Below are positions 16,322-18,529 of a DNA stretch of 57,078 bases, piece by piece. Position numbers and translations under genes: made by a program. Under the pieces are notes generated by a model. That model made no database searches. It was not told the DNA's origin and was given only the letters and a program-made list of their open reading frames with translations. The DNA is from an uncultured Candidatus Peribacteria bacterium (GTDB lineage Bacteria > Patescibacteriota > Gracilibacteria > Peribacterales > Peribacteraceae): assembly GCA_964434585.1 (NCBI GenBank), contig CAYSVN010000001.1, forward strand, positions 1 to 57,078. Reading direction: 5' to 3'. Each line of letters opens with the position of its first letter. The first letter of the stretch is position 1.

Positions 16322-18529
<2,208 letters not shown>

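Follow-up and report, generated by a model that had tools for sequence, protein, structure and literature searches.

In-frame stop codons under purifying selection are widespread in bacteria (PMC7918605), and functional bacterial genes that carry premature stops, the pseudo-pseudogenes, have been described (Belinky et al., 2021, PMC7918605), including by proteogenomics in Salmonella (PMC9122581). Escherichia coli J53 CipR27, which carries TAG at codon S83 of the essential gene gyrA, is viable by means of an endogenous suppressor activity (Vinue and Hooper, 2016, PMC7207127), and low-level UAG suppression was found in 22 of 22 clinical isolates (PMC7207127). At the level of the whole code, UGA is read as glycine (code 25) in Gracilibacteria/Absconditabacteria, which belong to the same GTDB class as the organism considered here, and TAG-recoded phages are also known (bioRxiv 10.1101/2021.08.26.457843).

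The case described in this paper is a new example of a kind that is already known, in which a bacterial gene is conserved apart from a premature stop. What sets it apart is that the affected gene encodes the only, and essential, ligase of a member of the Candidate Phyla Radiation and that three assemblies reproduce the stop. Cells cannot do without DNA ligase, and the small-genome family to which the organism belongs has LigA alone. The stop therefore implies one of three things: UAG read-through that is sufficient for life, ligase activity from another source, or a consensus sequence that hides a minority intact allele. The first two, if true, would bear on translation fidelity and on the minimal gene sets of the Candidate Phyla Radiation, and the third, if true, would be an annotation warning for metagenome-assembled genomes. 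Annotation pipelines will list the genome as one without an intact ligase.

The stretch of DNA that was analysed (the window, 57,078 nt) belongs to contig C1 of an assembly of 1.185 Mb (92 contigs, 38.5% G+C, 95.8% completeness, 0.45% contamination), and its LigA and DnaK homologues bear Peregrinibacteria/Peribacteria names. At position 57078 the window meets a 10-N scaffold gap (C1:57079-57088), which breaks a conserved gene of about 820 aa (55300 onward). There are 42 runs of N (10 to 100 N) in the genome, several of them within conserved genes, where they mimic frameshifts.

The ligA Locus and the Position of the Internal Stop

The gene for NAD+-dependent DNA ligase (ligA) occupies positions 16331-18529 of the plus strand. 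It is a single open frame that runs from a GTG at 16331 to its normal terminator, likewise TAG, at 18527-18529, apart from the TAG at 17351-17353, where the local sequence is CCA AGG TGG TAG CGT GCC TAT AAG. Translation of the 732 codons that precede the terminal TAG gives a 732-residue LigA with one internal stop, and this product could be aligned over its full length to the LigA of relatives and, in three segments, to E. coli LigA (PDB 2OWO). An earlier note on this DNA had described the frame as continuous except for this one codon, which was confirmed by the translation and by the end-to-end alignments. It had also placed the stop in the stretch that reads PRWAVAFKFP in E. coli LigA and equated the lysine of AYKF with E. 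coli K314, and the 2OWO alignment agrees on both points: the TAG takes the place of an invariant alanine (E. coli A310), four codons ahead of the motif V lysine K314. This lysine, K345 in the present protein (AAG, 17363-17365), is itself invariant and would be translated only upon read-through of the TAG.

Two ORFs are thereby delimited. The upstream ORF (16331-17353, plus strand, 340 aa) comprises domain Ia and the nucleotidyltransferase domain without its last strand, motif V (Pfam Nlig-Ia, DNA_ligase_aden), and it contains the active-site lysine of motif I, K117 of EEKIDG (codon 16679-16681), whose KxDG motif has K117, D119 and G120 invariant. The downstream ORF (17393-18529, plus strand, 378 aa from the first GTG) comprises the OB fold, zinc finger, HhH and BRCT domains with all of their motifs intact (Pfam OB_DNA_ligase, DNA_ligase_ZBD, HHH, BRCT). 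The Pfam model of the adenylation domain, PF01653, spans the stop, matching 16811-17377 with 222.9 bits over model positions 64-253 of 253 with the one TAG inside, and a second PF01653 segment of the gene lies at 16541-16720 (42.7 bits). The two ORFs are not a chance juxtaposition. The features by which a LigA is recognized, namely the KxDG adenylation domain and domain Ia, OB fold, four-Cys zinc finger, HhH and BRCT in the canonical order, are present, and the motif V lysine is joined to motif I in the same polypeptide only if the TAG is read through.

Two features would suit a functional two-piece ligase, in which an N-terminal adenylation fragment and a C-terminal fragment restarted at GTG 17393 would assemble non-covalently: the break falls close to where the nucleotidyltransferase domain gives way to the OB domain, and the first start codon after the TAG coincides with the beginning of the OB domain. 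Such an arrangement is nonetheless extremely improbable. ATG, GTG and TTG are absent between the internal TAG and 17393, so that a restarted C-terminal piece would be without motif V, and the motif V lysine is among the 14 residues that separate the TAG from GTG 17393 and that both pieces lack. The equivalent K314 of E. coli LigA is reported to be essential. Moreover, there is no Shine-Dalgarno-like sequence 5' of 17393, and ligA is split in none of the 38 relatives that have the gene.

The adenylation domain also carries an in-frame palindromic repeat insertion (16718-16800, plus strand), which adds about 24-28 residues in a hairpin loop after motif I according to homologue alignment and folding. 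A hairpin of -40 kcal/mol is predicted for the insert, whose arms share 90-93% identity with C1:42021-42051 and with sequences on contigs C42 and C48. The alignment of homologues indicates that it occupies a loop whose length also varies among relatives, and it resembles the Rickettsia palindromic elements. A different repeat, intergenic and about 125-160 nt in length, is located at about 16162-16286, directly 5' of the ligA start. Diverged copies of it, which appeared as secondary BLAST matches of an ENA contig (described below) against the window, flank cysS at 36357-36484 and, on the minus strand, at 34336-34495, with 84% and 77% identity.

Conservation of the Gene and of the Stop Site

The read-through LigA aligns end to end with the LigA of 38 relatives, with up to 58% identity, and none of the 38 has a stop at this site. 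The local motif around the stop site is invariant in the 15 database homologues that were aligned, and among the 191 LigA sequences retrieved the residue at the site is alanine in 190 and serine in one. In 16 family relatives the corresponding codon is GCG in nine, GCA in six and GCC in one. TAG is separated from GCG by two substitutions (G>T and C>A), and the probable mutational path would lead from Ala GCG through Ser TCG to TAG, serine being the residue found once among the 191 homologues.

Downstream of the internal TAG, all 391 codons are open, and the family-invariant residues of LigA are all kept, including K117, K345, the zinc-finger cysteines C439, C442, C457 and C462, and the BRCT residues. 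No frameshift, second stop or lost motif was found across the 732 codons of the gene. A ligA from a sister species was not found, the closest match being 67% identical.

Reproducibility of the Stop in Other Assemblies

The same TAG, with the same split into products of 340 and 378 aa, is present in ENA ERZ23495463 scaffold_4801 (14.6 kb) and in JGI 3300039175 Ga0401115_013783 (5.05 kb). The ligA DNA is 100% identical in all three assemblies, TAG included, and the ligA products of the assemblies differ merely in V versus M for the GTG start. The surrounding DNA is distinguishable: over 8.2 kb, 5 SNPs, one 20-bp indel and one 1-bp indel separate the ENA contig from the window, whereas 3 SNPs and 1 indel were counted between the JGI contig and the window, and 2 SNPs between the JGI and ENA contigs. 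The positions that are polymorphic between the window and the ENA and JGI contigs are 14051-14070, 15096, 18553, 18682, 18685, 18787 and 19872, with none inside ligA; the 20-bp indel lies inside an SLH-protein gene, and a small cluster of differences is located just 3' of ligA. Another locus of the same organism was recovered from the ENA assembly (99.9% identity) and from a second JGI metagenome, 3300038671 (99.6% identity).

With the TAG present on haplotype consensuses that can be told apart and that come from more than one data set, a bug in the assembler is ruled out, and it is very unlikely that a random sequencing error produced the codon. The stop was reproduced in independent data, and, to judge from the assembly consensus sequences, the internal TAG is a real, reproducible nonsense codon and very unlikely to be an error of assembly or sequencing.

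A shared artefact of sequencing or consensus calling, with GCG as the true codon, would have to have produced the same two-base change in three distinguishable consensus haplotypes, drawn from at least two JGI metagenomes and an ENA re-assembly. The genome shows no indel noise, and a control relative is free of in-frame stops, as described below. On the other side, the change from GCG to TAG consists of a G>T plus a C>A, the stop in dnaK (see below) is one of three G>T changes crowded into 31 nt, a pattern more suggestive of damage or miscalling than of evolution, and the other assemblies of the organism are made of short contigs (1.7-14.6 kb), which suggests low coverage. With both sides considered, we give a shared artefact little credence.

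Search for Another DNA Ligase

The genome has one PF01653 locus, the ligA locus. No match to PF01068 (ATP-dependent ligase) was found in the 95.8%-complete genome, and a tblastn search of the genome with LigA returned ligA alone, with no paralogue. Forty relatives were also searched, 24 of the same family and 16 class relatives; ligA is present in 38 of them, and an ATP-dependent ligase above the cut-off in none. LigA is the only ligase of the family, and ligA is the only DNA ligase gene of the organism in its 95.8%-complete assembly.

The earlier note had offered error, pseudogenization and read-through or suppression as explanations of the stop. The set was the right one, although error has become unlikely now that the same TAG is found in two further assemblies, and an ordinary pseudogene fails the test that the note itself had proposed, a second intact ligase gene together with further decay of this copy. 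The search for a second ligase, whether another ligA or an ATP-dependent enzyme, yielded none of either kind in the assembly, and further lesions in ligA were likewise not found. With no second ligase, no decay and error unlikely, read-through or suppression would be the best reading.

A variant of gene death has to be weighed separately, in which ligA is dead as a very recent pseudogene and ligase is supplied from outside the bin, by a plasmid, a phage or the missing 4% or so of the genome. Some sequence is indeed missing, as the assembly is 95.8% complete in 92 contigs and neither tRNA-Cys nor tmRNA was found in it. The gene-callers of all three assemblies give two separate products, and the gene also bears the in-frame repeat insertion, albeit in a loop that is of variable length among relatives. 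The 732 codons free of frameshift, second stop or lost motif speak against it, as does the absence from the assembly of a second NAD+- or ATP-dependent ligase, and neither the 24 family members nor the 16 class relatives have an ATP-dependent ligase that might be ancestral. We regard this explanation as unlikely.

Genetic Code, Release Factors, and tRNAs

The stops of 932 long ORFs are TAA in 609, TAG in 225 and TGA in 98. Pairs of long ORFs in the same frame that are split by one stop have TAA in 36 cases, TAG in 13 and TGA in 6; these proportions match the overall stop usage, so there is no surplus of read-through-like TAG junctions. For the census of gene ends, and for that of internal stops described below, the complete genome of a relative (G023, 1.377 Mb) served as the reference and was compared by tblastn. 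Conserved genes (n = 191) end with TAG in 54 cases, TAA in 131 and TGA in six, at a median of 0 residues past the C-terminus of the homologue, and TAA and TAG together terminate 185 of the 191 exactly where the homologue ends. Both release factors are intact, RF1 with its PAT and GGQ motifs and RF2 with its SPF and GGQ motifs. TGA is scarce as a terminator (6 of 191 conserved genes, 98 of 932 long ORFs) although RF2 is intact, and the RF2 gene is without the usual programmed frameshift.

No tRNA with a CUA, UUA or UCA anticodon was found among the 38 tRNAs called by ARAGORN and the 39 called by Infernal in the approximately 96% complete genome, so that the search for a CUA-anticodon tRNA proposed earlier came back empty by both programs. 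At a very low threshold ARAGORN made 511 calls, some of them 'cta', none of which is supported by Infernal. A tRNA-Gln with anticodon CUG is present.

TAG is an ordinary terminator in this genome, and the standard code is used. The earlier view that TAG acts as a true stop elsewhere holds for the end of ligA itself, for 225 of the 932 long ORFs and for the 54 conserved gene ends, and its corollary, that TAG is not globally reassigned, was upheld by those 54 gene ends, the intact RF1 and the lack of a CUA tRNA. The marks of reassignment, which are disuse of TAG as a terminator, a CUA tRNA or change in RF1, and many in-frame TAGs, were all absent. Global reassignment of TAG was accordingly ruled out, the in-frame TAG of ligA being a lone one.

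Some unusual tRNA genes were observed. A divergent tRNA-like gene cluster is located at C88:930-1612 (minus strand) on a 2.4-kb contig. Two of its genes exceed the Rfam tRNA threshold (36 and 29.8 bits), both with anticodon AUA and one of them Tyr-like with a long variable arm, and beside them lies a permuted piece (T-arm, acceptor, D-arm) that gives a weak match to YrlA (Y-RNA-like; 35.9 bits, threshold 69). The cluster may be a mis-binned tRNA array of a mobile element. At the end of another contig (C47:18-92, minus strand), a tRNA of 60.5 bits was called tRNA-Phe(AAA) by ARAGORN, and its anticodon region admits two drawings, a loop of 7 nt with anticodon AAA and a loop of 9 nt, UGUAAAAAG.

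In-Frame Stops in dnaK and topA

The reference ORFs of G023 were aligned with the entire genome (about 224,000 aligned codons), and shadow-frame matches were removed. Three strong alignments contain an internal stop: the TAG of ligA, a TAA in dnaK at C54:6062 (73.8% identity over 599 aa) and a TAA in topA at C70:4785-4787 (62% identity over 775 aa). Each of the three genes is single copy in the genome. In the reverse control, no genuine in-frame stop was found in the relative by the same method. Of the nine frameshifts that conserved genes seemed to contain, eight are scaffold gaps of 10 N, and the notion of an error-ridden genome was rejected for indels on these two grounds. With stops in dnaK and topA as well, the question is no longer one of a local signal in ligA but one about a property of the organism, or else of the data.

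In topA (DNA topoisomerase I), none of 25 relatives has a stop, and the site of the TAA is occupied by lysine (AAA/AAG) in 19 of 24. The dnaK gene could be compared with an intact gene of a sister species (P0122, 89% nucleotide identity), from which it differs nearly always at synonymous third positions. At C54:6041-6073, however, three first-position G>T changes occur within 31 nt, giving A340S, E347stop and G350C; DnaK G350 is glycine in 117 of 120 homologues and cysteine in none. The dnaK stop looks different in kind from that of ligA. The only other contig recovered for the dnaK region, an ENA contig of the 3' part, begins 6 nt past the variant cluster; either a variant bubble or low coverage may be the cause. 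Loss of 8-oxoG repair as a source of the G:C>T:A changes was rejected, a MutY-like gene and an Fpg gene both being present. The dnaK and topA stops are known from one assembly only, as the exact fragments and most of the neighbouring genes are without other records. The dnaK stop may belong to a damaged or erroneous haplotype or be a segregating variant, and the two stops fit either organism-wide read-through or segregating or erroneous variants in this consensus.

The assemblies give only the majority base, and a minority intact ligA allele would be invisible in them. The TAG might therefore be a majority allele alongside an intact one that persists in other cells or in other copies of a polyploid chromosome, the two-base bubble having been collapsed by the assemblers, and the in-frame stops of dnaK and topA would then be segregating mutational load of the same kind. 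Nonsense codons in three single-copy essential genes of one consensus fit a clonal haploid population poorly, the beginning of the ENA dnaK contig 6 nt after the variant cluster is as expected of an unresolved variant, and the SNPs and indels between assemblies point to strain diversity. We nevertheless consider such a mixture rather unlikely: the contigs of all three assemblies continue unbroken across the ligA site, each with the same TAG, and a lethal allele would hardly be in the majority in several samples unless the cells were polyploid, for which there is no support here.

The three in-frame stops are TAG or TAA and never TGA, which raises an efficient ochre-type suppression of UAA and UAG by an unconventional tRNA, such that in-frame TAG and TAA would effectively be sense in some genes. 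The lineage would in that case tolerate UAA and UAG in ligA, dnaK and topA by an unusually high, possibly tRNA-mediated read-through with both codons still serving as terminators. In this context-dependent dual use of stop codons within a free-standing bacterial genome, the tRNA-like cluster on C88, with its two AUA anticodons and its Tyr-like member with a long variable arm, would be a candidate agent, and the odd tRNA on C47, with its AAA anticodon or 9-nt loop, adds to the picture. We hold this to be highly improbable, both in its general form and for the three genes together. TAA and TAG end 185 of 191 conserved genes at the end of the homologue, RF1 and RF2 are intact, and we know of no case in which an AUA anticodon reads UAG. 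The events are three in number, the absence of TGA is expected anyway from its rarity in an AT-rich genome, and C88 (2.4 kb) may be a mis-binned mobile element.

Recoding Signals and the Favoured Explanation

RNA structure downstream of the stop was not detected, as the 120 nt around the TAG fold no better than shuffled sequences (z = -1.09). Neither a stimulatory structure or context nor conservation of the stop in relatives, the features of programmed read-through, was found, and no context shared by the three in-frame stops of the genome was seen. Frameshifting and hopping were rejected, since the frame is the same on either side of the TAG and the +1 frame closes after 15 codons; for hopping, there is also no matching landing codon that would retain motif V.

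We favour, with a probability of about 45%, a genuine nonsense allele in the sole ligase gene that is tolerated by means of low-level read-through, the read-through being proposed on sequence grounds. According to this explanation, the TAG would be fixed or dominant in a natural population of Peregrinibacteria/Peribacteria type (about 1.2 Mb, 38.5% G+C). Most ribosomes would stop at the UAG and free a 340-residue fragment without motif V or the DNA-binding domains, and occasional read-through of the UAG would give a small amount of full-length LigA, sufficient for a slow-growing cell. The decoder might be a near-cognate tRNA, such as tRNA-Gln CUG, or a suppressor tRNA encoded in the unassembled 4% or so of the genome.

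In favour of this explanation, some suppression of UAG is common among bacteria and functional genes with in-frame stops are on record (PMC7918605, PMC7207127). As the TAG allele is common to several haplotypes, it cannot be lethal. Against read-through stand the lack of a stimulatory signal and of a suppressor tRNA among those found, and near-cognate insertions (Gln, Tyr, Trp, Lys) at the conserved alanine site may harm enzyme function. A sense codon results from eight of the nine possible single-base changes of TAG; reversion is therefore easy and a costly stop should vanish fast, so that its persistence would need very efficient read-through or some other compensation.

Comparison with Known Systems

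The ligA stop shares with codon reassignment its location within a conserved gene, and a class-level relative (G034) has 11 in-frame TGA codons in its ligA. It differs from reassignment in the 54 TAG terminators, the intact RF1, the lack of a CUA tRNA and the frequency of in-frame TAG, which is one per approximately 224,000 aligned codons. It is similar to pyrrolysine decoding in that a functional gene contains an in-frame UAG and UAG also serves the organism as a stop, whereas no tRNA-Pyl (CUA) was detected and the site is an invariant alanine of a housekeeping enzyme instead of a position in a methylamine methyltransferase.

Pseudo-pseudogenes are like it in several respects: a lone nonsense codon in an otherwise conserved gene, no decay downstream, the standard code, and a presumed low-level read-through. 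The published pseudo-pseudogenes, however, were accepted only if at least two species shared the stop and dN/dS was measurable, whereas the ligA stop is present in one species and three assemblies, and, unlike those genes, ligA is here the sole essential ligase. In the gyrA case of E. coli, suppression was demonstrated by a reporter; for ligA no suppressor tRNA gene was found, and read-through is what we infer. The gyrA S83 TAG and the ligA TAG are alike in being amber codons in single-copy essential genes of DNA metabolism.
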